This document shows positions 10,335-61,184 of a stretch of 64,000 bases of DNA, piece after piece (positions within the stretch are counted from its first letter, which is position 1; every line of letters starts with the position of its first letter). Below the pieces are notes generated by a model. The model ran no database searches and was not told the DNA's origin. It saw only the letters and a program-made list of their open reading frames with translations. Both the position numbers and the translations under genes were made by a program. Location: contig DASWMJ010000053.1 of the NCBI GenBank assembly GCA_036399775.1, forward strand, positions 94,069 to 158,068, written 5' to 3'. Source of the stretch: Chloroflexia bacterium (lineage in GTDB: Bacteria > Chloroflexota > Chloroflexia > QHBQ01 > JADMIH01).

Positions 10335-10450
10335 AGGGGTTCGGTAGGGGTCAGGGGTCAGAAGCGAACGTGAACCGTGAAACCTGATGCGTGAATCCAG
10401 AATAACCCTGGTCCTTGACCCCTGATCCCTGGCCCTGACCCCTGGTCCCT
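10335..10450. repeat. heptad-register hairpin element (GGGGTCA / CCTGAYC arms, CGTGAAM loop)
   Basis: aggggtcaggggtcag ... cgtgaaccgtgaaacc ... cctggtccttgacccctgatccctggccctgacccctggtccct. It lies in the leader of the regulator gene. Confidence 0.8.
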
Positions 10451-10463
10451 ATGCGGAGCACGA

Positions 10464-13094
10464 ATGAACGATGTGGCGTCCTTTGGTCGGTGGCTCAGGC
10501 AGCGTCGCCAATCTCTGGAGCTTAGCCGGGAGGACCTGGCGGAGATCGTGGGCTGCGCTCGCGTGACCATCGCCAAGATCGAGCAAGACGAGCGGCGGCC
10601 CTCAAGGCAGGTGGCGGAAAGGCTGGCCGAGGCGCTCAAGCTGCCCGCTGACGAGCGCGACGGCTTCATACTGTGGGCGCGGGGCGTTGCTGAAGAGGTA
10701 GCGCCCTCACTGCCCTTCCAACCTGCCTCTCCGCACCCGGCAATCCAACCCGGTCTCCCAATAAGCCCCTCAGCGCCCACGCCCAGGGAAGCGCCCCATC
10801 AGCAGCTTTCCACGCCGCCCGATACCATGCCTGCGTCTACCACTTCCTTTATCGGCAGGGCGCGGGAAGTAGCGAAGGTGCGTAGCCTGCTCTGGAGGGC
10901 CGACGTGCGCCTCCTTACGCTTACCGGCCCTCCCGGCATCGGCAAGACGCGCCTGGGCATGGCCGTAGCTGCTTCGGTACGACAAGACTTCGAGCATGGA
11001 GTGTGCTTCGTCGCCCTCTCATCTCTCAATGATGCAAGCCTGGTCGCTCCCACTATCGCGCAGACGCTCGGTTTGAAGGAAGTATCGGGGCAGGCCGTCG
11101 AAGTCACGCTCCAAACCTACCTGCGCGATAAGCAGATGCTCATGCTGCTGGACAATTTCGAGCAGGTCATACAGGCAGCGCCTCTGGTGTCGAATCTCAT
11201 GTCCGGCGCGCCCGGCTTGAAGCTCATGGTGACGAGCCGAGCCGTGCTGCACGTATATGGCGAGCACGAGTTTGTAGTTCCGCCGCTTGATCTTCCCTAC
11301 CCGAAGAAGCTCCCGGCGGTGGATGAATTGTCGCAGTGTGAGGCGGTAGCGCTCTTCACGCAACGCGCCCAGGCCGTGCAGCCAGGCTTTGCTTTGACAA
11401 GAGAGAACGCGCAGGTGGTGGCGCAGATATGCGTGCGCCTGGACGGGCTACCCCTCGCCCTGGAGCTTGCGGCGGCGCGCACCAAGCTGTTCACGCCCCA
11501 CTCTATGCTGGCGCGCCTCAACCAGAGGCTTTCGCTGCTGACCGGCGGACCCAGGGACCTGCCCGCCCGCCAGCAAACTCTGCGCGGCGCGATCTCCTGG
11601 AGCTACGACCTGCTCTCCGAGGATGAGCAAACCCTCTTCCGCAGACTGTCCGTCTTCGTAGCAGGCTGCACGCTCGAAGCCGCAGAAACTGTATGTGAAT
11701 TTGGAATTTCGGATTTCGAATTGCGAAATGAAAATGAACGAGAAACAAATTCGAAATTCGAAATCCGAAATTCCAAATCAATAGGCGTTCTTGATGGTTT
11801 GGCTTCGCTAATGGATAAGAGCCTGTTGCGGCAGGAGGATGCGAGCGGTGGAGAGCCGCGCTTCGTGATGCTTGAGACGTTGCGGGAATATGGTTTGGCG
11901 CAACTGGCGGAACGGGATGAGCTTGACATAATGCAACGCCATTACGCTGCTTATTATCTCGCGCTGGCCGAGCGTGCTGAGCCGGAATTGCGTGGGCCTG
12001 AGCAGGGGGTATGGCTGGCGCGATTGGAACAGGAGCATGATAATCTTCGCGCGGTCTTTCGCTGGGCGCTCGATGCGGGCGAGCAAGAGATAGCCTTGCG
12101 CTTGGGCGGCGCGCTTGGGCGGTTCTGGTACACGCGCAGCTACCTGGTTGAAGGGCAACAATGGCTCGATGCGGCACTCTCGGAGAGCGAGGACGCGGCT
12201 CCGGCGATTAGAGCAAAGGCCTTAGGCTCAGCAGGCTCATTGGCCCTGCTACAGAATGAGCATACGCGGGCAAGAGTGCTCATGGACGAGAGTCTGCGTC
12301 TTTGGCAGGTGGTAGGGGACCCCGCGAGCATCGCCAGGGGTATGAGCAACTTGGGCGCGGCGATTGCCATCCAGGGCGACTTCTCCCACGCTACTTCCCT
12401 CTTCGAGCAGAGCATGGAGATATGGCGAGAGGTGGGCGACGACTGGAACCGCGCGCTTTCCCTCGCCAATATGGGCTTCGCCATGCTCTGTCAGGGTGAC
12501 TATGAGCGTTCGGGTGCGTTATGCGCCGAAAGCCTGGCTATACGGCGCGTGCTAGGGGATACGTCCGGCATCACACTTTCCCTCATCAACCTGGGACTCG
12601 TGCCCTTGCACCAGGGCGACTACAGGCGAGCCATAGAGTTGTTCAAGGAAAGCATAGAGCTGGCACGCGAGTTGGGCGACAGGCGCAATGTAGCTCTAGC
12701 CTACACTTACCTCGGCCTCTCGGCATTGCGCCTGGGGGAGTACGAGCAGGCTTCTCATTACTACCAAGAGAGTCTGACTCTGTCCCGCGAGATTATGCAC
12801 AAGTTCGGCGTTGCCCGCACCTTCCTGGGGATGGCGGGTATCGCCTTCGAGGGAGGGCAGGTGGAGCGCGCCGTCAGCTTGTGCGGCGCTGCCGATGCCC
12901 AGTATGACAACCTCAACGTAAGCCTCACCCCGGCAGAGCGCGCCCTCCACGAGAAGACCCTTGATGCAGCGAAGTCCCGGTTGGACGGCGCAACCTTTGC
13001 CAAAGCCTGGGAAGCGGGCCAGGCCCTCTCCCTGGATGAAGCCGTTAACTACGCTAGGGGTCAGGGACCAGGGATCAGGGGTCAGAGGGAGTAA
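10464..13094 (+). CDS. STAND-type transcriptional regulator: XRE-family HTH + NB-ARC/AAA ATPase + TPR repeats
   Basis: 876 aa. HTH segment is LSREDLAEIVGCARVTIAKIEQDERRPS. Walker A is GPPGIGKTRL and Walker B-like is MLMLLDNFEQ. A long C-terminal TPR-like array follows (ALRLGGALGRFW...). It is a paralogue of 17284-19851. Confidence 0.85.
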   Translation: MNDVASFGRWLRQRRQSLELSREDLAEIVGCARVTIAKIEQDERRPSRQVAERLAEALKLPADERDGFILWARGVAEEVAPSLPFQPASPHPAIQPGLPISPSAPTPREAPHQQLSTPPDTMPASTTSFIGRAREVAKVRSLLWRADVRLLTLTGPPGIGKTRLGMAVAASVRQDFEHGVCFVALSSLNDASLVAPTIAQTLGLKEVSGQAVEVTLQTYLRDKQMLMLLDNFEQVIQAAPLVSNLMSGAPGLKLMVTSRAVLHVYGEHEFVVPPLDLPYPKKLPAVDELSQCEAVALFTQRAQAVQPGFALTRENAQVVAQICVRLDGLPLALELAAARTKLFTPHSMLARLNQRLSLLTGGPRDLPARQQTLRGAISWSYDLLSEDEQTLFRRLSVFVAGCTLEAAETVCEFGISDFELRNENERETNSKFEIRNSKSIGVLDGLASLMDKSLLRQEDASGGEPRFVMLETLREYGLAQLAERDELDIMQRHYAAYYLALAERAEPELRGPEQGVWLARLEQEHDNLRAVFRWALDAGEQEIALRLGGALGRFWYTRSYLVEGQQWLDAALSESEDAAPAIRAKALGSAGSLALLQNEHTRARVLMDESLRLWQVVGDPASIARGMSNLGAAIAIQGDFSHATSLFEQSMEIWREVGDDWNRALSLANMGFAMLCQGDYERSGALCAESLAIRRVLGDTSGITLSLINLGLVPLHQGDYRRAIELFKESIELARELGDRRNVALAYTYLGLSALRLGEYEQASHYYQESLTLSREIMHKFGVARTFLGMAGIAFEGGQVERAVSLCGAADAQYDNLNVSLTPAERALHEKTLDAAKSRLDGATFAKAWEAGQALSLDEAVNYARGQGPGIRGQRE
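11699..11778. repeat. perfect 24-bp inverted repeat (32-nt loop) of the GGATTTC/GAATTTC heptad family, inside the CDS and translated
   Basis: Left arm 11699-11722 is atttggaatttcggatttcgaatt. Right arm 11755-11778 is its exact reverse complement. It shares a 25-nt identical core, gaatttcggatttcgaattgcgaaa, with 61185-61209. Confidence 0.9.
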
Positions 13095-13214: not shown

Positions 13215-15578
13215 TTACCGACTATCGCAGTTGGGGTAGAAGGTATTGGCTACTATCTTGGAGACCTGGCCCCTTGTCGCGTTGTGGTTGGGACGGAAGT
13301 AGGGCAGGTTGCCGCCAACGCAAGGCTCGCCTGCGCCGCCGCAGTTGTAGCCGCCTATGTAGCCTCTGCTGGCAAGGCGCTGTATCCAGTCGTAGAAGCC
13401 GTTGGAGGGCGGCACGTCCTGGAACATCTGGCTACCTGCCGGGTCGTTGAACCCTGCGGCGTTGGAGACTATCTTGGAGATTTGGCCGCGTGTGGCGTTA
13501 GCGTTTGGCCTGAAGTAGGGCAGACCGCTCCCAACGCAAGGCTCGCCCGCGCCGCCGCAGTTATACCCGCCGATGAAGCCCCGGCCCGCGAGACGCTGTA
13601 CCCAGGTGTAGAACCCGTTCGAGGGCGGCACGTCCTGGAACATCTGCTCGCCCACAGCATCGTTTATACCGGCGGCATTCGATATAATCTTCGATAGCTG
13701 GCCGCGTGTGACGTTGGCGTTCGGGCGGAATGTGCAGTCGCTATACCCGCCGATTATGCCCCTGTTCGAGAGGCAGGTCACGAACGGGTGGAAGGTGCTG
13801 CCGGTGGGTACGTCGCTGTATTCGCCCGGCGTGCAGATAACAGGTGTAGGCGATGGCGGTGGTGGCCCACCACTGCACGATGGGAACTTGAACGAGCCTA
13901 TGCGCGTCTTCCACTCCTGTCCGAAACTGTCGTGGTATTCCTGGGTGTACCAGAAGGTGCAATCATCGCTGGGGTCCACAGTGAGGTCGCTGTAGTCGCC
14001 CCAACGCCCCTGCCCATTGCTGGCGGTCTGCGACCCGCTGCCGGAGATCAGCGTAGCCTCTCCCTGGCCCATAGTGCCCAGGGGATCGCCCGCCAGCCGC
14101 CCTGCATAGCGCACGCCCGGATAGACCGTCGCGCCCGTGCCGCCGGTTGACACGCTATAACCTATCGCGATGTTGCCGCGCCTGTCCATAGCGATACTCC
14201 CCATCCAGCGATGTATACCGTCGGTAGCCCCAGGCGCGTAGGTGCCCTGCTGGTAGATAGTGGGAGTGCCGCTGAGGTTGCGCAACTCGTACCAACGCTC
14301 GCCCGCGTAATTATTGGCGTTGACGTTGTGCAGCAGCACGAGCGATTGATGGGTGCCGACGTTGCGGTATGCGGCGCGGTACATCAGCCGGTCACCGATG
14401 CCGTCAAGCCTCGTGGTAGTGCCCGGCTGCGGGATGCAGTACTGGCACAACTCCGTGAAATTAGCTACGTCCAGGTTGGTGGGTCCCGTCCAGGTTGAGT
14501 TGGAAGGGGTCGCCCAGTCTACGTGGAACTTGTATATCTTCATTGGGTCGCCCATCATGGCGAAGGGATTGGGCGCGCCCGACGGCGGCGCGGTAGGGCC
14601 GTCCAGGTCGGCGGGCATAACCAGGCTGGAGCTTGTGCCGAGCGGGCCGGAGTTAGTCTGCATCGAGGCGCTCTGGCCGAGCAGCATCTTGGCGCGTTCA
14701 AAGACGTATGGCTGGCTGCCTGCGTAGCTGTTGCCGTTGAACTGGTTGACGCCCATGTAATAGCCGTCAGGCCACATTCCGAAGTGGGGGTAGTCCGGAA
14801 AGATGGTGCTGCTCATGAAGAAAGAGTACACCCAGTAGCTGCCCGTCGCGTCCGCCGTTTGCGAGATGGCAATACATTCATAGTAAGGCGCTTCTGCAGT
14901 GAACTGGCTCAGCAGCCACCTGTCTGCAAGCTGGTCGTACAATACTATGGGGTCGCCATCGTTGCGGTCGGCGCACTGTCCGCCTGTGCTCGCCCACAGA
15001 GCGTTGATGTTTGTGGGGGCAATGAGCGCGAGGCCGTTCTTGTCCCATATCTGGATAGCGGAGTTGACCATCTGCACGTAGTGGTTGGGCCCGACCTCCC
15101 CGTTGGTATCGGGCGGTATACCGCTACCGGCATTCGCCAGGTCCATACCATCGAAGTTCCTGATAGGCGCGGGCATGGCGGCGGGAGCAAGCGCGCCCAC
15201 CGGGTTCATTACTGATTGGATCACCGGGTCGGGCGCATCTACGTGCCCGAACAGGGGTATGCGGTCGTGCTCGTTCTCCGCCCAGACCTTCTTGTTAGCC
15301 ACGTCAACGGCGGGCAGGTCGCGGAGGGGCGGGGAGAGCGTCGGGGCAACCGGCTCGCTGGCCAGGATGCCGTTCGCGGTGGGTAGGTTGGTCCAGATGT
15401 CGCGCACCGGGGACTTGGCCTTAACGGCAGAGTTCTGCCCTACGACAATCGGGCCGAAGGGGCGTTGCTGGGGCGCTGTTTGCGTGGCGCTGCCAGCTAG
15501 CAAGAACCCTCCAAATGTCACAACCGCCAGGAGAATAGCGGTCAATAGCGCCGGGACTATACGTTTTGAATGTGCCAC
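13215..15578 (-). CDS. secreted protein of unknown function with three C-terminal SLH domains
   Basis: 787 aa, GTG start at 15578 with AAGGAG 7 nt upstream, and a signal anchor. The N-terminal ~580-aa domain has PPDTNGEVGPNHYVQMVN and RWGDYSDLTVDP motifs (propeller/sialidase-like by recall, unverified). The SLH cassette spans 13215-13821. Confidence 0.8.
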   Translation of the reverse strand: MAHSKRIVPALLTAILLAVVTFGGFLLAGSATQTAPQQRPFGPIVVGQNSAVKAKSPVRDIWTNLPTANGILASEPVAPTLSPPLRDLPAVDVANKKVWAENEHDRIPLFGHVDAPDPVIQSVMNPVGALAPAAMPAPIRNFDGMDLANAGSGIPPDTNGEVGPNHYVQMVNSAIQIWDKNGLALIAPTNINALWASTGGQCADRNDGDPIVLYDQLADRWLLSQFTAEAPYYECIAISQTADATGSYWVYSFFMSSTIFPDYPHFGMWPDGYYMGVNQFNGNSYAGSQPYVFERAKMLLGQSASMQTNSGPLGTSSSLVMPADLDGPTAPPSGAPNPFAMMGDPMKIYKFHVDWATPSNSTWTGPTNLDVANFTELCQYCIPQPGTTTRLDGIGDRLMYRAAYRNVGTHQSLVLLHNVNANNYAGERWYELRNLSGTPTIYQQGTYAPGATDGIHRWMGSIAMDRRGNIAIGYSVSTGGTGATVYPGVRYAGRLAGDPLGTMGQGEATLISGSGSQTASNGQGRWGDYSDLTVDPSDDCTFWYTQEYHDSFGQEWKTRIGSFKFPSCSGGPPPPSPTPVICTPGEYSDVPTGSTFHPFVTCLSNRGIIGGYSDCTFRPNANVTRGQLSKIISNAAGINDAVGEQMFQDVPPSNGFYTWVQRLAGRGFIGGYNCGGAGEPCVGSGLPYFRPNANATRGQISKIVSNAAGFNDPAGSQMFQDVPPSNGFYDWIQRLASRGYIGGYNCGGAGEPCVGGNLPYFRPNHNATRGQVSKIVANTFYPNCDSR

Positions 15579-15813
15579 GTGTGTGCTCCTTTTCTCTCTT
15601 TCTATTTTGCTCTTTCTTGCAACGGTTGAACCTCTCGCGGCGTCTTCAGCGCCGGTCTGCCCACCCTATATAAGCGCGGGCGGGCCATCTATACCCTGTC
15701 GGACCTCATGCCCACCTGGGGACTCGGACGCGATAAAAGACGCCCCGACTCTAGTGTGTATGCTGGGTGAGAGGTTCGGCTATATTATACATCCAGCTTG
15801 CCTACCTGAGAAT

Positions 15814-15897
15814 AGGGATCAGGGATCAGGGATCAGGGATCAGGGACCAGGGACCAGGGACCAGGGACCAGGAGTCAGAGCCTGACTCCTGGTCCCT
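15814..15897. repeat. tandem heptamers (4 x CAGGGAT, 4 x CAGGGAC) plus an 11-bp hairpin
   Basis: Read directly. The hairpin is ccaggagtcag-agc-ctgactcctgg at 15868-15892. Confidence 0.9.
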
Positions 15898-30564: not shown

Positions 30565-30843
30565 GTCTAATAGTGCTTCCGCCGCCTCCACCCCTTCCAT
30601 CAATAAGTGCTCCTTCTGTGCCTGTATCAGAGGACTCAAATAAGATACCGGTTTCTGCAACGCAAGATTGCTTATGGAATTGTATATGTCGGTAGTACTC
30701 TTGGATCATATAGAAAGAAGCGCTAGACAGTAGTTGAATGGGTTGATAACTTTTGTATTCCATATGCCCTACAGGGCGAGCTGACGCGCACGCGTTCGGC
30801 TGCCTCGTTGCGAACAAGTCCGGACAGGTGGGCTTAAGAATTT

Positions 30844-30872
30844 TTGACAGCGCGTACCGCCTCTGGTATAAT
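30844..30872 (+). promoter_or_regulatory. consensus sigma70-type promoter of tRNA-Pro
   Basis: TTGACA at 30844-30849, a 17-nt spacer, then TATAAT at 30867-30872 preceded by TGG. The tRNA starts at 30884. Confidence 0.8.
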
Positions 30873-30883
30873 GGGAGGTACTT

Positions 30884-30957
30884 CGGGGTGTAGCGCAGCC
30901 CGGTAGCGCGCTTCCTTCGGGAGGAAGAAGTCGGAGGTTCGAATCCTCTCACCCCGA
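30884..30957 (+). tRNA. tRNA-Pro (anticodon CGG)
   Basis: CGGGGTG/CACCCCG acceptor stem, GGTTCGAATCC T-arm and anticodon arm CTTCC-TTCGGGA-GGAAG. CCA is not encoded. Confidence 0.9.
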
Positions 30958-33124: not shown

Positions 33125-33967
33125 CTATCTTAGTCCTGCAAATAGATCGCCCCTGGCGTCTGGGGTATCCGGCAGGGGTGTGCCTGCCGCCAGGACGTAG
33201 TGCTCAGTGCCCCGGACCATATCGTTGAACTCCGAGGGCATCTTGGCCCACATCTCAAAGTCCTTGCTTTGGGTGCGGTGCTGCTTCAAACTCTGCGCTT
33301 TCAGGTCCAGCCACCTACTCACGTCCACAGAGTTGGTTATCTCGCTGTCGGGCAGTCCGAACTTATCCGTGTCCAACCTCAGGTAATCGGAATCGGACTG
33401 CAACTCTGCCATCAAACGTGAGAGCCTTTTCATGATGCTGCGCGGCCAGGTAGAGTAGTAGAGCCGGGTGGTCTGCCATGGTTCGCCCGCTTCGGGGAAA
33501 GTATCAGGGTCGGCGGCTACCTCGAATGCCTCATTCGTCAATTCGTGGACGGTAAGGTGGTCCAGGTGGCCGTACCCACCTGTAGGGTCAAACGTGACCA
33601 TGACGGTTGGCTTGAAGTCGCGCACGATCTTGACTATCCTGCCCAGCGCCTCTTGCCTGTCGCTCCGGTAGAAGCAAGTTGGATCATCGTTTTCAGGCGA
33701 GCCGATCCAGCCGGAGTCTCGGTATTCGAGGAACCACAGGTTCTTGACACCGATTACCACGCAGGCCGCGCGCAATTCGGCTTCTCGCACCTTCGCGAGC
33801 GTCTCCGGCGTCGCCAGCGAAGGGTCGGCTATCTGCCCAGCCTCGCCCCGCGTAGCGCATATCAGCCCCGTGCGTATGCCTTCGGTAGCCGCCTGCGCGT
33901 ACACCCCACTCATTACCTGCTCGTCGTCCGGGTGGGCAAAGACGCCGAGTATTGATAGGTCCGACAT
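33125..33967 (-). CDS. PIG-L/LmbE family deacetylase
   Basis: ILGVFAHPDDEQVMSG carries the AHPDDE signature, and HLDH follows later. Confidence 0.8.
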   Translation of the reverse strand: MSDLSILGVFAHPDDEQVMSGVYAQAATEGIRTGLICATRGEAGQIADPSLATPETLAKVREAELRAACVVIGVKNLWFLEYRDSGWIGSPENDDPTCFYRSDRQEALGRIVKIVRDFKPTVMVTFDPTGGYGHLDHLTVHELTNEAFEVAADPDTFPEAGEPWQTTRLYYSTWPRSIMKRLSRLMAELQSDSDYLRLDTDKFGLPDSEITNSVDVSRWLDLKAQSLKQHRTQSKDFEMWAKMPSEFNDMVRGTEHYVLAAGTPLPDTPDARGDLFAGLR

Positions 33968-33984
33968 TGTATGCTTTCCTTCCT

Positions 33985-34139
33985 GATGCGTGAAACGTGA
34001 TACGTGAAAACTTTACTCCCTCTTGATAATCTCAGAGTCTCTGCGCTTCTGCAGCTTAATCCTAACTATCTTTGCGAACTTTGCGTTTCTTTGCGTCTTT
34101 GAGGTTACGTAATTACGTTGCACGTTTCACGTTTTACGC
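33985..34139. repeat. composite palindromic element, copy 1 (CGTGAAA-heptad arms, B-box, 37-nt C-box)
   Basis: Arms are gcgtgaaacgtgatacgtgaaaac and gttgcacgtttcacgttttacgc. The B-box is tctctgcgcttctgcag. The C-box at 34070-34106 is ctttgcgaactttgcgtttctttgcgtctttgaggtt. Confidence 0.85.
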
Positions 34140-34217
34140 ATGCATTGTACAACAAAACAGTTCTGGTGTGAGCGCAGAGGGTGGGCTATAATTCGGGAGT
34201 TGTGTTGGGAGATTGGT

Positions 34218-38200: not shown

Positions 38201-38257
38201 GACAACACACTCCAGATAGTAACAGGCAGAACTCCCAAACGCTAAATTATACCATAA

Positions 38258-38287
38258 GGGGCCAGGGGTCAGGGACTAGGGATCAGG
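38258..38287. repeat. CAGGGAY-family heptad tract
   Basis: ggggcca ggggtca gggacta gggatca gg. Confidence 0.8.
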
Positions 38288-38420
38288 CTCCACGCCCAAC
38301 ACCTATCCCTGGATAGACAGCAGACCACTAATAGTGCATAATAGCGTCCGGGACATTAAGTAGCCATTTACGTTGCGCTATGCATTGCTCTTTCTTACTC
38401 ATTGGCGAAAGAAGACTTAG

Positions 38421-41135: not shown

Positions 41136-42215
41136 ATGAGAGGAAACCAAGTGACGCATTCAGACACAGGCAAGGCCGCGATCATAGACCAACCCGCGGA
41201 TAGCGCTGATTGGGAGATACGCCCCTATAGAGAGGGCGACCTTCCTGCTATCGTGGCTCTTATCAATATGGTAAACACCACTTATAAGCTGAACCTGGTT
41301 ACGACCGAGGAGAACTTGCGCCGCGATTTCGAGAGTCCGCGCTCCGACCCTGCCCGGCAAGTACTCATAGTAGAGGGGCCGAGGCGCGAGGGCGTGCCTG
41401 GCGGCACGATACTGGGTTGTGGGCGCATCACATACGACGACGTTGCTGAGACCAGCGAGCGCATTTACTACCCCCGCGTGGTGGTCCACCCTTCTGTAGA
41501 GAGGCAGGGCCTTGAGAGGGAGATAGCGCGCCGCTTGATAGAGATAGCGCGTGAATACGAAGCAGACCCGACCTTCCCACACATGGAGAAAGTATGGCTG
41601 AAGGCCTATACACGCGAGGAGCTTGTGCCCGTGTGTGAGCTATGGGGAGCGGCGGGCATGAAGGAGGTCCGGCACTTCTGGGTGATGGCACGTCCCCTGG
41701 ACATGCCTGTGGACGAGCCGCAGCTAATCGAAGGGGTGAATATACGCACATACAAGAGGCCCGAAGACAACGAGCGCGCGAAGGCGGCCTTCGAGAATTC
41801 CTTCTCGGACCACTGGGACCACCACCCCATCACCCAGGAAGATTGGGACTACTGGACCAATACGCCCAACACGCGACCCGACCTCTCATGGCTGGCCGAA
41901 GTGGAAGGCGAGCCGGGAGCTATCGGAGGCTTCTGCATCATCTCGATCTCTGATGAAGAGAACAGGCTCAAGCGTGTGCGCGAGGGTTGGATCGAATTGC
42001 TCGGCACGACAGCCGAGTGGCGGCGCAAAGGGCTGGGCCGCGCCCTGCTGCTGCACGGCCTCCATTCGCTCAGGAGCGCGGGTATCGAGGTAGCTTTATT
42101 GGGCGTCGACTCGCAAAGCCTGACGGGTGCCAATCGCCTGTACGAGTCGGTAGGCTTCCGCCTCCGCAGCCGCGAACTCCAACAAGAATGCATGTTGGAC
42201 GAAATCAAATTATGA
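41136..42215 (+). CDS. tandem GNAT-domain N-acetyltransferase
   Basis: Two acetyltransferase-like halves. The second has the RRKGLGRALLLHGL acetyl-CoA-binding motif (R/Q-x-x-G-x-G/A). Confidence 0.7.
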   Translation: MRGNQVTHSDTGKAAIIDQPADSADWEIRPYREGDLPAIVALINMVNTTYKLNLVTTEENLRRDFESPRSDPARQVLIVEGPRREGVPGGTILGCGRITYDDVAETSERIYYPRVVVHPSVERQGLEREIARRLIEIAREYEADPTFPHMEKVWLKAYTREELVPVCELWGAAGMKEVRHFWVMARPLDMPVDEPQLIEGVNIRTYKRPEDNERAKAAFENSFSDHWDHHPITQEDWDYWTNTPNTRPDLSWLAEVEGEPGAIGGFCIISISDEENRLKRVREGWIELLGTTAEWRRKGLGRALLLHGLHSLRSAGIEVALLGVDSQSLTGANRLYESVGFRLRSRELQQECMLDEIKL

Positions 42216-42305
42216 ATTACTAATTACTAATTACGAATTATGGATTAGCTCGTTCCTAGCTGGTTTATTTCGCAGGGTAATTCGCAATTAGTAATTCGTA
42301 ATTCC
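42214..42305. repeat. AATTACN-heptad imperfect hairpin between GNAT and hutU
   Basis: Arms are gaattactaattactaattacgaattatgg and gggtaattcgcaattagtaattcgtaattcc, complementary apart from 2 internal mismatches over 27 nt and unpaired 3-nt ends. The left arm begins inside the GNAT stop codon. Confidence 0.8.
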
Positions 42306-42319: not shown

Positions 42320-43984
42320 ATGGAGACTATGACTACTATTCGTGCTCCGCGTGGGAGCGCTCTCCAATGCAAGGGGTGGCTGCAAGAAGCGGCGCTCAGG
42401 ATGTTGATGAACAACCTTGACCCTGACGTTGCCGAGCGCCCGCAAGATCTGGTGGTGTACGGCGGGAGCGGGAAGGCTGCTCGCGACTGGCCCTCTCTGA
42501 TGAAGATCATGGAGTGCCTGCGCTCCCTGGAGAACGATGAGACGCTCCTGGTGCAGAGCGGCAAGCCTGTGGGCGTCTTCCGCACCACCCCGGACGCGCC
42601 TCGCGTGCTGCTGGCGAACTCCAACCTCGTGCCCCACTGGGCTACGCGCGAGGTCTTTTCCAGGTTGGAAGCGCAGGGCCTCATCATGTACGGCCAGATG
42701 ACGGCGGGTAGCTGGATTTACATAGGCTCGCAGGGCATCTTGCAGGGCACCTACGAGACGTTCGGGCAGGCGGCGCGCAAGCACTACGGGCCGGACGCTA
42801 CGCTGGCCGGTAAGCTCGTGCTGACGGCAGGCCTGGGCGGCATGGGCGGCGCGCAACCCCTGGCAGTGACCATGAACGGCGGCGTCGCCATCGTGGTCGA
42901 GGTAGACCCGACGCGCATCCAGAGGCGGCTTGATACCGCTTACCTCGATACCGCGACCGACAACCTCGACGATGCGCTTGCTCTCGCGGACGATGCTACC
43001 AGGGAGCGCAGGCCCCTCTCCATAGGGCTGCTGGGCAACGCGGCAGCTATTTATCCTGAGATGGTGCGCCGGGGCAGGGTGCCCGACATGGTCACAGACC
43101 AGACATCGGCGCACGACCCCCTCAACGGCTACGTGCCTTTGGGCCTGGACGTGGAGGGCGCGGCCACGCTCAGGGCAAGCGACCCCGACGAATACGTAAG
43201 GCGCGCGTATGAAGCGATGGCGACGCACGTTCGGGCCATGCTCGACTTGCAGCGCATAGGCGCGGTCGTGTTCGACTACGGCAACAATATCCGCCAGCAG
43301 GCTTTCGGCCAGGGCGTGGAAGACGCCTTCGCGTTCCCAGGCTTCGTGCCCGCCTATATCCGCCCTCTCTTCTGTGAGGGGAAAGGGCCGTTCAGGTGGG
43401 CGGCGCTCTCTGGCGACCCGCAGGACATCTACAAGATAGACGACAAGGTATTACGCGAGTTCGCGAGTAACGCCTCTGTGGTGCGCTGGATAGAGCTGGC
43501 GCGGCAGAAAGTCAAGTTCCAGGGATTGCCTGCACGCATCTGCTGGCTCGGTTACGGCGAGAGAGCGCACTTCGGGCAGATCGTCAACGAGATGGTACGC
43601 ACCGGGGAAGTGAGCGCGCCCATAGTGATAGGCAGGGACCACCTCGACACGGGCAGCGTGGCCTCGCCCAACCGCGAGACAGAGGCGATGAAGGACGGCA
43701 GCGACGCCATAGCAGACTGGCCCATCCTCAACGCGCTCATCAACGCCGTAGGTGGGGCGACCTGGGTGTCGGTGCATCACGGGGGCGGCGTAGGGATAGG
43801 CTTCAGCATCCACGCCGGTCAGGTGATAGTAGCCGACGGCACGCCCGAAGCCGCAGCCCGCCTACAGCGCGTCCTGACCACCGACCCGGGCATGGGCATC
43901 ATCCGCCACGCCGACGCAGGCTATGACGAAGCGATAGAGGCCGCCCAGCGGTTCGATATTCGCGTGCCGATGCGGGAAGGGTAA
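42320..43984 (+). CDS. hutU: urocanate hydratase
   Basis: 554 aa. [43 protein letters not shown] and [10 protein letters not shown] are characteristic of urocanase. Confidence 0.9.
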
Positions 43985-44144
43985 AACGTATTGCGTAGCT
44001 CGTATTGCGTAAAACGCGAAACGTGAAACGTAATTCGTAATTACCCAATAACTCTGCGCCTCCGCACCTCTGCGGTTCTTTTCACGTTATCTTGGCGAAC
44101 TCTGTGCTCTTGTGCCTTTGTGGTTCAATAATTACGTTTCACGC
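43983..44144. repeat. composite palindromic element, copy 2
   Basis: Left arm is cgcgaaacgtgaaacgtaattcgtaattaccc. B-box is ctctgcgcctccgcacctctgcggtt. C-box is cttggcgaactctgtgctcttgtgcctttgtggtt. Right arm is aattacgtttcacgc. Confidence 0.85.
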
Positions 44145-52588: not shown

Positions 52589-55500
52589 TTGATTTATACC
52601 AACCGCCGGCAGCCCACCGGCATCGTTACTTTGCTATGCGCGCTCATTCTAAGCGCTGGCCTCACTATCCTGGCGATATGCTTTGTCACGTCTTCTTCAG
52701 CAGTCTCCGATGGCACCCAATCCAGCAAGAATCCGGCGCAAGTAAGCCCAACACAACCAACCGGCTGTGAGTTTGGCTGGAATACTGTGAATAGCCCTAA
52801 CGCCAGTACGACGAATGCGCTCAACGATGTGGCAGCAATCTCCGTTGACGATGTCTGGGCCGTTGGTGAGTATGTATACACCCCGACCCTTAGACGAGCG
52901 TTGCTAGAGCACTGGGACGGCACGCAATGGAACGTAGTGGTTGCACCAGCCTTTGATTTCGTTGAATCCGAGCTTTACGCTGTGACTGCGTTGCGTGAAG
53001 ATGACGTATGGGTTGCCGGCACTTATAGCCCCAGTTCGGGATCGGAGCATCCACTCTTCGGACACTGGGACGGGGCGGAGTGGGCTGTAGTACCAGGTCC
53101 GGATATGGATGGAAGAATAATGTCGATAGATGCTCTCGGCTCAGACGATATTTGGGCAGTAGGATGGCGTCCCTTCGGCGGACAACAAACACGAACCCTG
53201 GTCGAGCACTGGGATGGGGTGGCGTGGAGCGTGATCGCTAGTCCCAATACCACTTCTCGTAAAAACGATTTGTGGGCCGTGGCAGCAGTAGCCGAGGACG
53301 ACGTGTGGGCGGTAGGCAATACAGACGACTCAATACAGGGTAGCCACGCCCTGATCGCGCACTGGGATGGCGTGGAATGGAGTATCGTCCCAAGCCCGGT
53401 GGCCGGCCCGGAATCCAGTCGTCTTTTTGATGTTACAGCCCTGGCTGCGGATGACGTGTGGGCAGTAGGGTATTACACTCTACAGAACAATACAGTTCAC
53501 CGGACGTTGGTCGAGCACTGGGATGGCGTGCTGTGGAGCGTTATCCCCAGCCCTGACCCGGATGCCAATCTGCGGGAGCTAAATGCAGTCGCAGCGATAT
53601 CAGCAGATGACATATGGGCTGTTGGAATTGCATACCAGGGAAGGCTCACCGCTCTGATCGAGCACTGGGACGGTACAGAGTGGCAGATAGTCGGGTACCC
53701 CGGTCCTGGTACGGTGCAAACCACCTTAGAAGCCATAGCATTTACTTCAGAGCAAGATGTCTGGGCAGTAGGTCTACGCGCAGGCGACGCATACATCCCT
53801 CCGACACCATACCTCCCTCCGACACCTTCGAACCACACTCCACTGGACCAGACATTTACCATGCGCTTCGGCCATTGTGACCCTCTTTCTCCAACACCCG
53901 CAACTACGAGCACAGCTTTGGTGCCTACATCTAGCGAGACAGCCACCCCATTAGCAACCTGGACGCGCATCCCAACAGGTACACGAACGAGCAGTCCGAC
54001 CAGGACTCAGTCCGCGAGCGCAACATCTACGCTTACGCCTCGCCCAACCGCGCCTCCTCCAAGCGCCACCCCAACGGTACCACCCGGCTGTGTGCTGGAC
54101 TGGACTATTGTTGATACCTTACATCCAGGTATGGCCTCTGGTAGATTCTATTCAGTCAGCGCATTCTCCGCGAATGATGTTTGGGCGGTTGGTAGCTATT
54201 CTCAGCCGTCGGCTCCAGATGTGACGCGAACGATGGTACAGCACTGGAATGGCTCTGAATGGTCCATTGTGCCTAGCCCGAACCCCAGCGCTCAATCGAA
54301 CACTTTGCAGGGCGTCGATGCTATCGCTCCCGACAATGTTTGGGCAGTAGGCTACTACGATGTTTCGTCACAGTTGAATCCTCTACTCATGCATTGGGAT
54401 GGCTCAGCATGGACCACTATACCAAATCCGGTATCCGTATGCCTCTGCACTCTTGATGACGTTGAGATCGTGTCACCAAACGATGTATGGGCAGTGGGTA
54501 TGGAACAGCGAAATGGTGTTGCTTATCCTCTAATCATCCACTGGGATGGAACCGTATCAACAACGGTCTTGTCACCCTTTGCTGGGAGTGGCCGTTTGCG
54601 GGCCATACATGCTGTTTCAAGTAATGATTTATGGGCTGTCGGAGTTTCTTATCCCGCCTCTTTGCAAAGGTCGTCTCTAACAATACACTGGGATGGGATT
54701 GAATGGACCGTCGTGCCCAGTCCTTCCCCGGCAAATGGCGTTAGTGAGTTGCTTGATATTGCAGCTATTTCCGCCAGTGATATTTGGGCGGTTGGCTACG
54801 TGTCAAGTTCAGGGACCCAATCTCCCAGAGGCCTGACTTTGCACTGGGATGGTATATCCTGGGAAGAAGTTGCTAATCCATTTCCTGTAAGCGCGTCGGC
54901 AGAATATCTCCTGGGTGTGAGCGCTCTCTCTGCGAACGATGTTTGGGTAGTAGGCGCTGCTGATAATTATTCAAGTCCTCCTAACTCCATCACCACAGCA
55001 ATGCACTGGGATGGTACCAGTTGGAGTAGAGAGTTCATTCCTCTTCCTGCCGCGTCAAATAGCGTCTTTTTTGCAGTTGCTGTGGTCTCATGGGATGATG
55101 TTTGGGCTGTAGGCTATACGCATGATGTCGGCAGTCCCAGTAAGTCGTTGACTGAGCACTACACCTACACATGCTCGACTCCATCTCCAACCGAAACCGG
55201 CACCCCAGTGCCTGCTACGTCTACAACTACACCAACAGAGGTACCAGTAAGTACCTCAACGACTACGACCACGGCGACCACACCCAGTAGCACCGCCACA
55301 AAAACCCCCACCCGGTCGTCTACGATTACAGTGACTCCAACATGGACATCTACACTTACCGCTCAGGTAACGCCTTCCCACACGGGCACACCAACAGCTA
55401 TATCTGCCTGGACGGTAACAAGCACACCTGGCATGGCTACGGCTACTACAACGTCCACTTCTATCGCTTCTACCCCGACACTTACTCCTTGCAGCGTCGA

Positions 55501-56116
55501 GTTCACCGATGTGCCTACTTCAAACAGCTTCTACGCACAGATAAGCTGCCTCACCTGCCGCAACATCATGGGTGGCTACTCCGACAACACCTTCCGGCCC
55601 AACAATAACATCACCAGAGGCCAACTATCCAAGATCGTGGCTAACTCCGCAGGCTTCATCGAGCCTGTTAGCGGCCAGACCTTCACGGACGTGGCACCCG
55701 GCAGCACCTTCTACCAGTACATAGAGAGGATGGCGAACAGGGGCATCATCGGTGGCTACCCGTGCGGCGGAACGGGCGAGCCATGTGTAGGTGGGAACAG
55801 GCCATACTTCAGGCCCAATGCCAACGCCACACGCGGCCAAATCTCCAAGATAGTCTCCGAGGCGAAAGGCTTCAACGACATACCGGAGGGGCACACCTTC
55901 GAGGACGTACCGGCCACGAGTACATTCTACCCCTGGATAGAGCGACTCGCCTCCAGGAGCATAATGGGCGGCTATGCCTGTGGTGGCCCAGGCGAACCAT
56001 GCAGCGCGGCCAACCGTCCCTATTTTCGCCCAGGCAACAACGCCACCAGGGGGCAAACGTCGAAGCTAGTGGCCAACACTTTCTTTCCTGATTGCCAGGC
56101 ACTTAGTCGCCGGTAA
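52589..56116 (+). CDS. secreted surface protein: two HWDG/D(V/I)WAVG beta-propeller-like arrays, Thr/Pro/Ser linkers, three SLH domains
   Basis: 1175 aa, TTG start after GGAGGGA, and a signal anchor. The repeat type matches 3858-6242. The SLH cassette spans 55502-56116. GC is lower than in its paralogues. Confidence 0.8.
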   Translation: MIYTNRRQPTGIVTLLCALILSAGLTILAICFVTSSSAVSDGTQSSKNPAQVSPTQPTGCEFGWNTVNSPNASTTNALNDVAAISVDDVWAVGEYVYTPTLRRALLEHWDGTQWNVVVAPAFDFVESELYAVTALREDDVWVAGTYSPSSGSEHPLFGHWDGAEWAVVPGPDMDGRIMSIDALGSDDIWAVGWRPFGGQQTRTLVEHWDGVAWSVIASPNTTSRKNDLWAVAAVAEDDVWAVGNTDDSIQGSHALIAHWDGVEWSIVPSPVAGPESSRLFDVTALAADDVWAVGYYTLQNNTVHRTLVEHWDGVLWSVIPSPDPDANLRELNAVAAISADDIWAVGIAYQGRLTALIEHWDGTEWQIVGYPGPGTVQTTLEAIAFTSEQDVWAVGLRAGDAYIPPTPYLPPTPSNHTPLDQTFTMRFGHCDPLSPTPATTSTALVPTSSETATPLATWTRIPTGTRTSSPTRTQSASATSTLTPRPTAPPPSATPTVPPGCVLDWTIVDTLHPGMASGRFYSVSAFSANDVWAVGSYSQPSAPDVTRTMVQHWNGSEWSIVPSPNPSAQSNTLQGVDAIAPDNVWAVGYYDVSSQLNPLLMHWDGSAWTTIPNPVSVCLCTLDDVEIVSPNDVWAVGMEQRNGVAYPLIIHWDGTVSTTVLSPFAGSGRLRAIHAVSSNDLWAVGVSYPASLQRSSLTIHWDGIEWTVVPSPSPANGVSELLDIAAISASDIWAVGYVSSSGTQSPRGLTLHWDGISWEEVANPFPVSASAEYLLGVSALSANDVWVVGAADNYSSPPNSITTAMHWDGTSWSREFIPLPAASNSVFFAVAVVSWDDVWAVGYTHDVGSPSKSLTEHYTYTCSTPSPTETGTPVPATSTTTPTEVPVSTSTTTTTATTPSSTATKTPTRSSTITVTPTWTSTLTAQVTPSHTGTPTAISAWTVTSTPGMATATTTSTSIASTPTLTPCSVEFTDVPTSNSFYAQISCLTCRNIMGGYSDNTFRPNNNITRGQLSKIVANSAGFIEPVSGQTFTDVAPGSTFYQYIERMANRGIIGGYPCGGTGEPCVGGNRPYFRPNANATRGQISKIVSEAKGFNDIPEGHTFEDVPATSTFYPWIERLASRSIMGGYACGGPGEPCSAANRPYFRPGNNATRGQTSKLVANTFFPDCQALSRR

Positions 56117-56180: not shown

Positions 56181-56253
<73 letters not shown>

Positions 56254-56322
56254 ATGTACAGTCCCTATGATACCACAAAACGCGTGTGATGGCAAATTTC
56301 GCACGCTGGTAGGTTTTGTTCT

Positions 56323-56454
56323 AACCGCAAAGACGCAAAGAATCGCTAAGTCCGCAAAGTTTCTAAAATGCATCTGTCAAGCTTGTACCCAGGCTGCTAC
56401 ATGCAAACAATCGCGTTCTTTGCGAACTTTGCGTTTCTTTGCGTCTTTGCGGTT
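56323..56454. repeat. inverted pair of C-box units (long hairpin, 58-nt loop)
   Basis: 56323-56359 is aaccgcaaagacgcaaagaatcgctaagtccgcaaag. 56418-56454 is ctttgcgaactttgcgtttctttgcgtctttgcggtt, which differs from 34070-34106 at 1 of 37 nt. Confidence 0.85.
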
Positions 56455-56470
56455 AGGGTAGCTATCGAAG

Positions 56471-57415: not shown

Positions 57416-57428
57416 CTAGCATCCGCTT

Positions 57429-57465
57429 CTGATCTCTGGTCCCTGATCCCTAATCCCTGACCCCT
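57429..57465. repeat. CAGGGAY-family heptad tract (reverse orientation)
   Basis: ctgatct ctggtcc ctgatcc ctaatcc ctgaccc ct. Confidence 0.8.
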
Positions 57466-57470
57466 ATTGC

Positions 57471-57499
57471 TTGACGTGCCAGCAAGTATGTGTTACAAA
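57471..57499 (+). promoter_or_regulatory. candidate promoter TTGACG-N17-TACAAA
   Basis: -35 at 57471-57476 and -10 at 57494-57499. It lies 60 nt upstream of ATG 57560. Confidence 0.35.
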
Positions 57500-58475: not shown

Positions 58476-58515
58476 GGGATTTCGAATTTCGGATATCGAA
58501 TTTCGAATTTTGGGG
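58476..58515. repeat. GGATTTC/GAATTTC heptad tract (half element)
   Basis: gggatttc gaatttc ggatatc gaatttc gaatttt gggg. It starts 2 nt after the stop codon. Confidence 0.8.
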
Positions 58516-60240: not shown

Positions 60241-60253
60241 GAGTTGGTTTTGT

Positions 60254-60391
60254 GACGCGTGAAACGTGAAACGTAAAACCCCAGAATGACTTCCGCGTCT
60301 CGGGACCTATGCGGTTCATTCCTATTATCTTAGCGCTCCTAGTGTTCTTCGTGTCTTTGTGGTGTATCACGTTTTACTTTTCACGTTTCAC
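60254..60391. repeat. composite palindromic element, copy 3
   Basis: Left arm is gcgtgaaacgtgaaacgtaaaacccc. B-box is cttccgcgtctcgggacctatgcggtt. C-box is cttagcgctcctagtgttcttcgtgtctttgtggt. Right arm is gtatcacgttttacttttcacgtttcac, which overlaps the stop and last 5 codons of 60374-60910. Confidence 0.85.
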
Positions 60392-61146: not shown

Positions 61147-61179
61147 GCTCGTCCTCGCGATTGAGGACGGGCGTTTTTT
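61147..61179 (+). terminator. orphan intrinsic terminator in the serA upstream region
   Basis: gctcgtcctc-gcgatt-gaggacgggc (1 mismatch) followed by gtttttta. No + strand gene lies upstream of it. Confidence 0.65.
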
Positions 61180-61184
61180 ATTGC

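Follow-up and report, generated by a model that had tools for sequence, protein, structure and literature searches.

Three intergenic sites in the 64-kb stretch of Chloroflexia DNA analysed here (referred to as the window) carry one and the same palindromic element, and the question which they raise is whether this element is a mobile repeat or a structured RNA. As described in the initial annotation, three copies of about 150 nt with one shared architecture were found, at positions 33984–34140, 43984–44144 and 60252–60391. By themselves these copies represent a lineage-specific repeat of an ordinary kind, if one with an unusual degree of structure. We read the composite as a nested, REP/MITE-like repeat at the level of DNA and not as a structured RNA. 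Taken as a whole, the element is reasonably likely to be a paralogous, lineage-specific nested palindromic repeat of DNA whose inner boxes, termed GGTT boxes in the following, belong to a cross-phylum superfamily linked to GxxExxY genes.

Anatomy and gene neighbourhood of the composite copies

Each copy is modular. Arms of three to eight tandem heptads, inverted on the right with respect to the left, enclose an inner module of about 80 nt, in which two GGTT boxes (B and C) follow each other in direct orientation, without an inverted box partner within the composite. The arms are intergenic and capable of hairpin formation, as in STRR-type repeats. In copy 1 (the parts of all copies are given on the plus strand) the left heptad arm (TGATGCGTGAAACGTGATACGTGAAAAC, 33984–34011) is followed by the B box (CTCAGAGTCTCTGCGCTTCTGCAGCTTAATCC, 34031–34062), by a C box of four CTTTGCG-type units with a GAGGTT end (34070–34106) and by the right arm, the complement of the left one (34107–34140). 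The B box, which had been assigned to all copies, is decayed in copy 1, where it reads CTCAGAGTCTCTGCGCTTCTGCAGCTT, and intact in the orthologue of this copy (locus L212). The long left arm of copy 2 (43984–44044) begins at the hutU stop codon and runs through CGTATTG, CGTAAAA, CGCGAAA, CGTGAAA and CGTAATT heptads; it is followed by the B box (CTCTGCGCCTCCGCACCTCTGCGGTTC, 44052–44078), the C box (TCTTGGCGAACTCTGTGCTCTTGTGCCTTTGTGGTT, 44090–44125) and a short right arm (CAATAATTACGTTTCACGC, 44126–44144), which adjoins the AAAGGAG ribosome-binding site of the downstream ArgZ-like gene. Copy 3 comprises the left arm (60252–60279), the B box (CTTCCGCGTCTCGGGACCTATGCGGTTC, 60290–60317), the C box (CTTAGCGCTCCTAGTGTTCTTCGTGTCTTTGTGGT, 60329–60363) and the right arm (60364–60391), which includes the stop codon (60374–60376) of a minus-strand DUF4870 gene; the stop codons of both hutU and this gene fall within arms. 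The gene contexts differ in the way that had been noted: the neighbours of copy 1 are a divergent PIG-L gene and an ABC-ATPase gene, those of copy 2 are hutU and the ArgZ-like gene, and those of copy 3 are two minus-strand genes, the DUF4870 gene and one encoding a 250-aa protein.

Alignment of the three copies with MAFFT gave a mean column identity of 70% over 197 columns, and the inner modules from B to C share 67–71% pairwise identity; the copies have their linkers in common as well. A search pattern for the architecture (GAAACGTGAWACGT, 75–95 nt, CTTTGNGGT, 4–10 nt, ACGTT) returned exactly the three copies, with 0.00 matches expected from 100 dinucleotide shuffles. Allowing at most one mismatch, CGTGAAACGT occurs 15 times compared to 2.3 expected occurrences, most of them within the composite arms. 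The arm stems of copies 1 and 3 fold (z = −3.4 to −5.9), and that of copy 2 folds more weakly (z = −1.6 to −3.2) because its right arm is short; the two strands of the copies are comparable in folding. The box units recur every 8–10 nt, with a mean of about 9 nt and not 10.5 nt, so that, contrary to what had been suggested, the cores do not stay on a single face of B-DNA. CGTGAAA resembles a parS half-site; a parS reading of this heptad was dropped, as the palindrome of parS never arises in the arms and the heptads of other elements are unrelated.

Further repeats in the window had escaped the initial annotation, namely a fourth element, an inverted pair of C boxes at 56.3 kb, and several other families of heptad hairpins. 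The former is an ORF-less hairpin (56321–56456) of two inverted 39-nt C boxes (56321–56359 and 56418–56456) around a 58-nt loop, without heptad arms. Its arms are 92% complementary, it folds with z about −10, it adjoins a tRNA gene and its module is the one found in the C box of copy 1. With its boxes as inverted partners it displays the hairpin form of the box superfamily, and it is kept at the orthologous site in three relatives' loci (L207, L208 and L209). Elements related in kind to the composite include a simple hairpin of ATTTCGA-type heptads, which belongs to a different family (11699–11777, with more copies at 61180–61256 and 58479–58508), a hairpin of ATTACGA/ATTACTA type upstream of hutU (42209–42305) and a second nested element, in which AGGGGTC-type outer arms surround CGTGAA-type heptads (10346–10430). 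GTAG-tagged REPs are present in relatives (L204, L206, L019) and are not enriched in the window.

Orthologous sites in relatives

All three composite sites are occupied in close relatives too, and there is no sign of recent transposition at any of them. Copy 1 is present in L212. Copy 2 was found in relatives whose HutU proteins are 98% and 96% identical, with very different heptad arms. In a third relative (L206, HutU 88% identical) the site holds a perfect 19+19-nt palindrome of CGTGAAA type alone, without B and C boxes, for which loss of the inner module could equally account. Copy 3 has the same orientation in L209, and in L208 the B–C module is inverted between the arms. The copies are thus paralogous and modular, with an inner module that is missing at one orthologous site and inverted at another, which bears out the description as a composite palindromic element and a non-autonomous repeat family; its other proposed identity, a structured RNA family, is not supported, as discussed below.

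Number and sequence of the heptad units diverge strongly between orthologues. Across eight copies 88.5% of the arm cells pair, with both sides changed in 9 of 20 pairs; none of 500 shuffles reached the observed values, and slid controls paired at 20–56%. The heptad arms change fast between relatives and yet remain complementary. A box-free CGTGAAA hairpin was found in another Chloroflexia MAG (L019), and box hairpins interrupted by other hairpins were observed there and in L036. Short-read contigs end at or within the elements in two cases (L121, L207).

No clean empty site for a box was found in the relatives' loci. A solo C box beside a tRNA gene in L212 was considered as one half of an empty-site pair and rejected, because homology with the window stops at that point (a synteny break). 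A composite-specific scan of metagenome contigs gave 0 matches; the source contig, itself from a JGI metagenome, was likewise unmatched, and the collection may therefore exclude that metagenome.

The GGTT box as a cross-phylum repeat

The GGTT box is 27–40 nt long and consists of two to four tandem CTNNGYG units of 8–10 nt, followed by GGTT. Operationally, we defined the superfamily by at least two tandem CTNNGYG units, 8–10 nt apart, and a GGT(T) end. By the regular expression and the arm profile (see below), such tandem units are present in the C boxes of copies 1–3, in the B box of copy 2 and in both arms of the 56.3-kb hairpin; mononucleotide-shuffled windows gave 0–1 matches to the regular expression, in contrast to the matches in the window itself. 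Among the matches listed, CTTTGCGTCTTTGNGGTT, preceded by a third unit upstream, occurs at at least 120 loci in more than 15 phyla, including Chloroflexota, Cyanobacteria, Planctomycetota, Bacteroidota, Verrucomicrobiota, Proteobacteria and Bacillota. About 70 chance matches are expected in 596 Gb for the 17 specified bases of this 18-nt query (one N; an estimate), and as the matches listed are a lower bound, the size of the family is uncertain.

The boxes occur solo, in direct arrays (as in L130, L114 and L067) and as ORF-less hairpins. Of the 128 matches listed, 68 have the inverse terminus within 400 nt on their upstream side and only 10 on their downstream side. Orientation relative to neighbouring genes is unbiased in the wider family, as are the mismatches within its arms (40 G·U-compatible versus 37 A·C, that is, compatible on the opposite strand). 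At the 120 genome loci selected by box, no gene family is shared near the boxes except GxxExxY, which was found at 4 of them; most boxes lie far from any nuclease gene.

Link between the boxes and GxxExxY genes

GxxExxY proteins are members of a PD-(D/E)XK nuclease family of about 125 aa (PF13366/TIGR04256). In 80 metagenome loci, which were selected solely by GxxExxY protein similarity, 39 of 76 (51%) have a strict three-unit purine arm within 200 nt upstream of the gene, and 48 of 73 (66%) have a GGT-ended pyrimidine arm within 200 nt downstream of it, compared to a background rate of 0.7% per 200 nt. The genes are enclosed by terminal inverted repeats of the form AACC-(CRCNNAG)x3 ... (CTNNGYG)x3-GGTT. 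Mostly they lie within a single arm pair; complete hairpins on both sides were observed in L089, L133 and L152. Furthermore, identity at the variable unit positions is 86% between the two arms of one gene, compared to 58 ± 3% with the arms of other loci, and none of 2000 permutations reached 86%. Shared descent of the sequences can also produce such a pattern.

A profile built from the arms of GxxExxY genes alone gave seven matches with E < 0.1 on both strands of the window and no other match with E < 1. All seven fall in the arms of the 56.3-kb hairpin, the C boxes of copies 1 (34077–34105), 2 (44091–44128) and 3 (60337–60364) and the B box of copy 2 (44049–44077). For the boxes of the composite itself the profile gave modest E-values (0.005–0.06), and it did not detect the B box in either copy 1 or copy 3.

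Neither the 64-kb window nor 123 kb of close relatives' loci contain a GxxExxY gene, so that a mobilising enzyme in this lineage is hypothetical. The cassette ends of GxxExxY genes show no target-site duplication, and no relatives of the protein were confirmed in viral contigs. A PDB sequence search with the GxxExxY profile returned no solved relative, and PADLOC indicated weak Cas4-like similarity only. The phylogeny of PF13366 shows multiple transfers between divisions (PMC3424549), which is consistent with boxes that spread across phyla together with the gene. The literature searched contained nothing on the boxes or on the function of PF13366/GxxExxY, and its matches to CTTTGCGGTT, AACCGCAAAG and CGCAAAG were primer noise only. 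The statement that the element is not recognised from the literature is thereby uncontradicted, though the heptad-hairpin part resembles the STRR hairpins of cyanobacteria (PMC2670836).

Alternative explanations

One alternative is a structured non-coding or cis-regulatory RNA, in which the B–C module would be displayed on a long stem made by the arms, for instance as a 5′-UTR element, a site of processing by RNase III or an RNA that serves as a protein sponge. Such a reading could draw on the stems of copies 1 and 3, which are more stable than shuffles with z-scores down to −5.9, on the compensatory changes in the arms, on the right arm of copy 2 abutting the ribosome-binding site of the next gene and on a small conserved 5-bp stem in the B box; STRR hairpins of cyanobacteria, moreover, have been proposed to stabilise transcripts (PMC2670836). 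Nonetheless, the two strands are about equal in folding, copy 3 lies antisense to its two neighbour genes whereas copy 2 is sense, and the inner module, which is inverted between orthologues, consists of two direct pyrimidine-rich repeats in which RNAalifold supports only the 5-bp mini-stem. The wider box family, with neither an orientation bias relative to genes nor an excess of G·U, argues in the same direction. Rfam at the gathering score reported only two tRNAs in the window and, for 18 loci of other phyla, no family at the boxes, and the sole match of copy 1 at E ≤ 10 (12.7 bits) is a chance match. We therefore regard an RNA identity as unlikely. A reading as terminators was rejected, since the scan yielded only chance-level mini-stems inside the B boxes. 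The boxes could instead be an array of sites for a host DNA-binding protein (a regulator, a nucleoid factor or a partition-type factor) that recognises the TGCG/TGTG cores, with the arms being incidental. That the units keep their C, T, G, Y and G positions while the middle bases vary, that the motif is conserved across phyla and that copy 1 is situated in a divergent promoter region and has −10-like hexamers in its vicinity would fit this proposal. On the other hand, the genes next to the elements in the window and at 120 other loci are unrelated to one another, no associated gene family was found except GxxExxY, and position and orientation relative to genes are unconstrained. The period of 8–10 nt is not one helical turn. 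Furthermore, the units co-vary between the two arms of one locus and differ between loci, which fits pairing of the ends or a locus-specific partner better than a universal host factor, and we give the host factor a low probability.

Similarly improbable, in our judgement, is a classical MITE, that is, a deletion derivative of an IS that was moved by the transposase of this IS via the CGTGAAA arms as terminal inverted repeats. Its size of 140–160 nt, intergenic position, inverted termini and multiple copies give the composite the appearance of such an element, and the breaking of short-read contigs at or inside the elements in L121 and L207 suggests repeats as well. However, copies 2 and 3 lack a target-site duplication and copy 1 has only a 7-nt CATTGTA repeat, offset by about 13 nt from the left arm; a non-systematic look at the window and the other loci examined brought no IS or transposase with matching ends to notice. 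The number and sequence of arm units vary strongly between orthologues, unlike inverted repeats under the constraint of a transposase, the arm palindrome exists bare on its own, and all three sites are occupied in relatives. Finally, the boxes might be integron attC sites or relics of gene cassettes, as they are imperfect palindromes of 60–150 nt with AAC...GTT-like outer ends, and the GxxExxY genes that lie between complete hairpins in L089, L133 and L152 are reminiscent of a cassette array. But few box ends (10 of 128 and 1 of 46) match the attC core site (GTTRRRY, with the inverse core RYYYAAC), each arm carries three repeated units and not an R box plus an L box, the GxxExxY genes lie mostly inside a single arm pair, and no integrase is among the gene families clustered near the boxes; an origin from integrons is thus very improbable.

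Proposed mechanism and significance

Considering the element as a nested repeat of DNA, we distinguish two layers. The outer layer is a pair of inverted arms of CGT-phased heptads (CGTGAAA, CGTAAAA, CGTGATG, CGTATTG), which can fold back on itself and evolves rapidly through slippage of units and substitution while complementarity is kept. The inner layer is the two-box module of about 80 nt at the centre of the palindrome, presumably placed into a heptad palindrome that was already there, and it may flip via recombination or template switching between the arms. In inverted pairs, GGTT boxes constitute the ends of GxxExxY cassettes, with gene-less forms far commoner. The boxes may be mobilised in trans, now or formerly, by a nuclease of the GxxExxY family that recognises the tandem units, in analogy to REPINs and RAYT. 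Any effect on the host would be limited to orientation-independent hairpin formation between genes.

More generally, and tentatively, as we rate this proposal somewhat below an even chance, GGTT boxes and GxxExxY genes may form an undescribed cross-phylum mobile system that parallels REPIN–RAYT, with a PD-(D/E)XK nuclease as its enzyme. The 125-aa nuclease would recognise the three tandem 8–10-nt units per end, or their hairpin or cruciform. It would mobilise the cassette that encodes it and also, in trans, the far more numerous gene-less forms, from ORF-less hairpins and solo boxes to nested composites like the three copies described here, with the centres of hairpins as preferred landing sites. 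The findings point to a family of selfish DNA that is widespread and, it appears, undescribed so far, the box of which is tied statistically to one small nuclease family (PF13366/TIGR04256). If the nuclease mobilises the boxes, this would amount to a second, independent REPIN–RAYT-like system with a very wide host range, would assign a function to a common ‘hypothetical’ gene family and would offer a handle on the nesting, flipping and palindrome upkeep of short repeats and of STRR-like heptad hairpins. In practical terms, the elements break short-read assemblies, and their position at the ends of genes makes them overlap with stop codons.

Comparison with known systems

Among known elements, the 23S rRNA intervening sequences of the S23p type in Leptospira and Coxiella encode a four-helix-bundle protein and act at the level of RNA, via RNase III. 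They share with the GxxExxY cassettes an ORF of about 120–130 aa between inverted repeats as well as ORF-less hairpin versions. They differ in the protein fold (a four-helix bundle versus PD-(D/E)XK) and in their location within rRNA, compared to intergenic boxes without strand bias. With MITEs the composite shares its size, terminal inverted repeats, intergenic position and lack of coding sequence, but it is without a target-site duplication, no parent IS was noticed and its arms are unstable heptad arrays.

The small dispersed repeats (SDRs) of Nostoc, reportedly treated by Elhai et al. in 2008 (Genome Res 18:1484), are not known outside heterocystous cyanobacteria, nor are they known to have an associated nuclease gene. 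They are discrete non-coding insertions of tens of nucleotides in hairpin or heptamer contexts, similar to the boxes of 27–37 nt inside a heptad palindrome. Heptanucleotide repeats of the STRR type in cyanobacteria were reportedly described by Mazel et al. in 1990. The heptad arms resemble them as tandem 7-nt intergenic units that form hairpins between co-transcribed genes, with several unrelated heptad sequences within one genome. Documented STRR hairpins are tandem heptanucleotides in cyanobacteria (PMC2670836), whereas here the host is a Chloroflexia bacterium, the units are of other sequence (CGTGAAA etc.) and the arms enclose a box module of 80 nt.

The closest parallel is provided by REP/REPIN sequences, short intergenic palindromes that occur singly or as inverted doublets, and by the RAYT gene, which is bracketed by these repeats (Bertels & Rainey 2011, PMC3116915; Di Nocera et al. 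2013, PMC3733652). Like them, the boxes are short intergenic palindromic repeats found singly and as inverted doublets that form long hairpins, without target-site duplication and with many gene-less copies per gene-bearing copy, and the sole associated gene, here GxxExxY, is bracketed by inverted repeats. The differences concern the protein, which is a PD-(D/E)XK protein of about 125 aa (PF13366) and not a Y1 HUH transposase, the ends, which consist of AACC/GGTT with three tandem 8–10-nt units in place of a GTAG/CGTC tag, and the arms of CGT-phased heptads of the composite. Moreover, the box type occurs in more than 15 phyla among the matches listed, compared to the lineage-specific REPs, and its mobilisation is a matter of inference here.

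Results

Architecture and context of the composite copies

The three copies of about 150 nt claimed by the initial annotation read as described. At 33984-34140 (copy 1), 43984-44144 (copy 2) and 60252-60391 (copy 3) inverted CGT-phased heptads of the CGTGAAA type enclose an inner module of two direct GGTT boxes, B then C, each consisting of tandem CTNNGYG units that end in GGTT. Their alignment comprises 197 columns with a mean column identity of 70%, and the inner modules share 67-71% pairwise identity. The architecture pattern (left heptads, 75-95 nt, CTTTGNGGT, 4-10 nt, ACGTT) was matched exactly three times in the window, namely by copies 1-3, with 0.00 matches expected from dinucleotide shuffles. 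A profile of the three copies added no complete copy within the window and gave two partial matches at 56.3-56.5 kb. Two details of the earlier description had to be amended: in copy 1 the B box has decayed, and the TGCG cores cannot be placed on one face of the helix, since the unit period of 8-10 nt differs from the helical repeat.

The proposed gene contexts were borne out for all three copies. Copy 1 lies between a PIG-L deacetylase gene (minus strand) and a DrrA-like ABC ATPase gene (plus strand), copy 2 between hutU and an ArgZ-like gene, and copy 3 between two minus-strand genes, one for a DUF4870 protein and one for a protein of 250 aa. The left arm of copy 2 has the hutU stop codon at its first base, and the right arm of copy 3 includes that of the DUF4870 gene (60374-60376). 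Among named genomes, HutU (88% identity) and the PIG-L protein have their closest relatives in Chloroflexia MAGs. A 7-nt direct repeat, CATTGTA (33965-33971 and 34143-34149), brackets copy 1, with an offset of about 13 nt on the left-arm side, and is kept in the orthologous locus L212. Read on the minus strand, both units give a -10-like TACAAT; the pair may represent promoter elements or a target duplication, or have arisen by chance.

History of the copies in relatives

The orthologous spacers of copies 1-3 were compared in relatives, and all three composite sites are old. Copy 2 is present in loci whose HutU is 98% (L203) and 96% (L202) identical; in both the B box is kept and the C box has three units versus four, and the arms are wholly different in unit type and number: L203 has CGTATTG/CGTGATG units and a right arm that is long and matches the left, L202 has (CGTAAAA)x4. 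In L206 (GCA_045805005.1; HutU 88% identical) the spacer is only 35 nt long and forms a perfect palindrome, GCGTGAAACCTGAAACGTG/CACGTTTCAGGTTTCACGC, without B or C box, for which loss of the module is as compatible as its prior absence. A box-less CGTGAAA hairpin also occurs in another Chloroflexia MAG. Copy 3 has the same orientation as in the window in L209, and in L208 this site has arms of the same types with the B-C module inverted between them. In copy 1 of L212 the B box is intact and the left arm longer.

Over eight copies 88.5% of the arm cells pair, compared with 20-56% in slid controls, and none of 500 shuffles reached the observed values. Compensatory arm changes were indeed found, both sides having changed in 9 of 20 pairs; with just eight copies, all of them related, these figures lend support but fall short of proof. 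Copy 2 of L202 and copy 3 of L209 occupy different loci and come from different metagenome samples, yet their inner modules share 89% identity, more than either shares with its orthologue in the window (65-80%). Furthermore, the C box has four units in all window copies and two or three in copies 2 and 3 of the relatives. This cross-locus identity and the genome-wise unit numbers may reflect concerted evolution or replacement of the module. Two short-read contigs stop at the elements, one inside copy 2 (L121, Logan SRR10954981) and one beside an arm at the copy 3 site (L207, JGI), which suggests a copy number in these genomes high enough to interrupt assembly.

Other hairpins and repeats in the window

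The C box is an independent module, a point overlooked by the initial annotation. An inverted pair of C boxes (56321-56359 and 56418-56456, 39 nt each, 58-nt loop) lacks heptad arms, is 92% complementary and folds with a z of about -10 on either strand. It adjoins a tRNA gene (56181-56253, minus strand), and three relatives (L207, L208, L209) keep it at the orthologous site. A solo four-unit C box in L212 (12646-12690) lies directly beside an orthologous tRNA gene, exactly at the end of homology with the window (30800-30884), and L041 likewise has a box adjoining a tRNA gene.

Heptad hairpins of unrelated sequence are also found. A family separate from copies 1-3 (11699-11777, 58479-58508 and 61180-61256) has arms of ATTTCGA, ATTTCGG and ATTGCGA heptads in identical variant order among its copies; the last of these is preceded by a terminator-like GC stem and T-run (~61150-61180). 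An ATTACGA/ATTACTA hairpin (42209-42305) lies upstream of hutU. This array is present, reduced or missing depending on the relative: close relatives (L203, 100-160; L202, 9945-9990) have right-arm heptads only and a different upstream gene, and more distant ones have no heptads there. Tandem arrays of AGGGATC, AGGGACC and AGGGGTC with up to 11 units occur at 15800-15877, 13056-13091, 38257-38292, 57426-57474 and 10346-10430, the last being a second nested element with AGGGGTC outer arms around CGTGAA-type heptads. Given these several unrelated hairpins, the composite is one instance of a tendency to heptad palindromes throughout the genome, and is distinguished from the others by the content of its loop.

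Large genes with internal repeats of ~150 and 216 nt (motif HWDG..W; 3858-7200, 13227-13742 and 52589-56116) resemble each other on opposite strands and probably encode beta-propeller or BNR-like repeat proteins. A GCCACC-type low-complexity repeat of 12/18 nt (2605-2730) and repeats of 33/45/57 nt (7390-7880) were noted as well.

GGTT boxes across phyla

An exact scan for CTTTGCGTCTTTGNGGTT in one genome per species yielded at least 120 loci. The matches listed derive from Chloroflexota, Cyanobacteria, Planctomycetota, Bacteroidota, Verrucomicrobiota, Acidobacteriota, Gemmatimonadota, several proteobacterial classes, Bacillota (Pelosinus), Armatimonadota, Nitrospinota and others. By our own estimate the 17 specified query bases (N free) should match about 70 times by chance in 596 Gb. 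Despite this the matches are not random, because nearly all those listed are preceded at a distance of 9 nt by a third CTNNGYG unit, the inverse terminus ACCRCNNAG (about 0.11 expected per 400 nt) occurs within 400 nt upstream in 68 and downstream in 10 of the 128 matches listed, and the loci fold into long near-perfect hairpins, AACC-(CRCNNAG)n ... (CTNNGYG)n-GGTT. Their loops range from 1 to ~220 nt, and some are nested in or interrupted by other palindromes. Direct arrays were seen as well (L012, L067, L090, L114), and the B-then-C order recurs in a sponge-associated Chloroflexi MAG, a Planctomycetaceae MAG and an Ectothiorhodospiraceae MAG. No Rfam family matched at the cross-phylum sites, and the boxes were not preferentially oriented with respect to their gene neighbours: of the matches listed, 43 had the next gene downstream on their own strand and 45 on the opposite one. 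GTAG-tagged palindromes of relatives, GTAGGGGCGAAC...GTTCGCCCCTAC in L204 (1-60), L206 (2050-2140) and L019 (1280-1320), look like classical REPs; the window shows no enrichment of such motifs (8 matches versus 7.4 expected).

GxxExxY genes and their box ends

Clustering of the ORFs near boxes gave no common family. In four loci a gene of ~130 aa lies tightly between boxes, and it was identified as PF13366 (PDDEXK_3), which equals TIGR04256, 'GxxExxY protein'. We therefore inspected the flanks of 80 metagenome loci selected solely by similarity to this protein. In this sample nearly every gene has aaCC-(CRCNNAG)x3 upstream and (CTNNGYG)x3-GGt downstream. A strict three-unit regex detected the upstream arm in 39 of 76 loci and the downstream one in 48 of 73 (background 0.7% per 200 nt), and the best local inverted alignment of a gene's two flanks reached a score of at least 30 in 46/69 loci versus 11/69 mismatched ones. 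The arm units vary by locus, with 20 heptamer cores including CGCAGAG, CACAGAG, CGCCGAG, CGCGAAG, CACGAAG and CACCAAG. At variable positions the two arms of one gene agree to 86%, arms of different genes to 58 ± 3%, and 0 of 2000 permutations reached the former value. Mismatches between arms showed no wobble bias (40 vs 37), and neither a target-site duplication nor an attC core was found at the cassette ends.

A profile built from the GxxExxY arms alone recovered in the window both 56.3-kb arms, the C box of each composite copy and the B box of copy 2 (E 1e-4 to 0.06); no other stretch scored E < 1. The B and C boxes of the composite thus belong to the repeat type that forms GxxExxY cassette ends.

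In one GxxExxY subfamily (metagenome loci L130, L132, L185, L187) direct instead of inverted GGTT boxes flank the gene, the upstream box ending ~10 nt before the ATG; L130 has an array of five co-oriented boxes. In four other metagenome loci (L168, L175, L183, L201) the upstream arm reaches the start codon directly with its third, purine-rich unit (e.g. ...CGCCGAGATG), and the GAG of the second unit, ~9 nt upstream, could act as ribosome-binding site. No account of the protein's function was found in the literature searched; a PD-(D/E)XK survey lists it as unknown and describes multiple transfers between divisions (PMC3424549). The protein has a weak Cas4-like similarity, and no solved structure related by sequence was found.

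Discussion

The best explanation of the composite is a nested DNA repeat: a heptad palindrome that evolves fast and yet is kept palindromic, with the two-box module at its centre. This module can be missing (L206) or flipped (L208), its unit number shifts by slippage, and it may have inserted into a pre-existing palindrome. The initial annotation had left the choice between a mobile element and a structured RNA family. Its repeat family stands; the composite is probably not RNA, a reading disfavoured by the flips in module orientation, one antisense copy, an inner module without structure, the missing wobble bias and the lack of an Rfam match. A binding array for a host factor is likewise disfavoured, as the contexts are unrelated and the arm sequences are locus-specific and co-varying.

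A classical MITE is disfavoured too: the target-site duplication is missing, no parent IS was noticed in the window or the loci compared, and the arms are unstable. The boxes are excluded as attC sites by the missing core site. Scans for terminators gave chance-level matches only, and this reading was rejected.

For the nested repeat, we infer that the boxes would be moved by the GxxExxY nuclease, because the gene is bracketed by boxes, gene-less copies are in large excess, target-site duplications are missing and the spread is cross-phylum. The main weakness of this explanation is that no GxxExxY gene was found in the 64-kb window or in 123 kb from relatives, and that the sites are old. The link of the boxes to GxxExxY genes is the part most worth following. 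The composite itself can be likened to REP-, MITE- and STRR-like repeats, and for the boxes together with the GxxExxY gene the REPIN-RAYT system (PMC3116915) serves as the model of the analogy.
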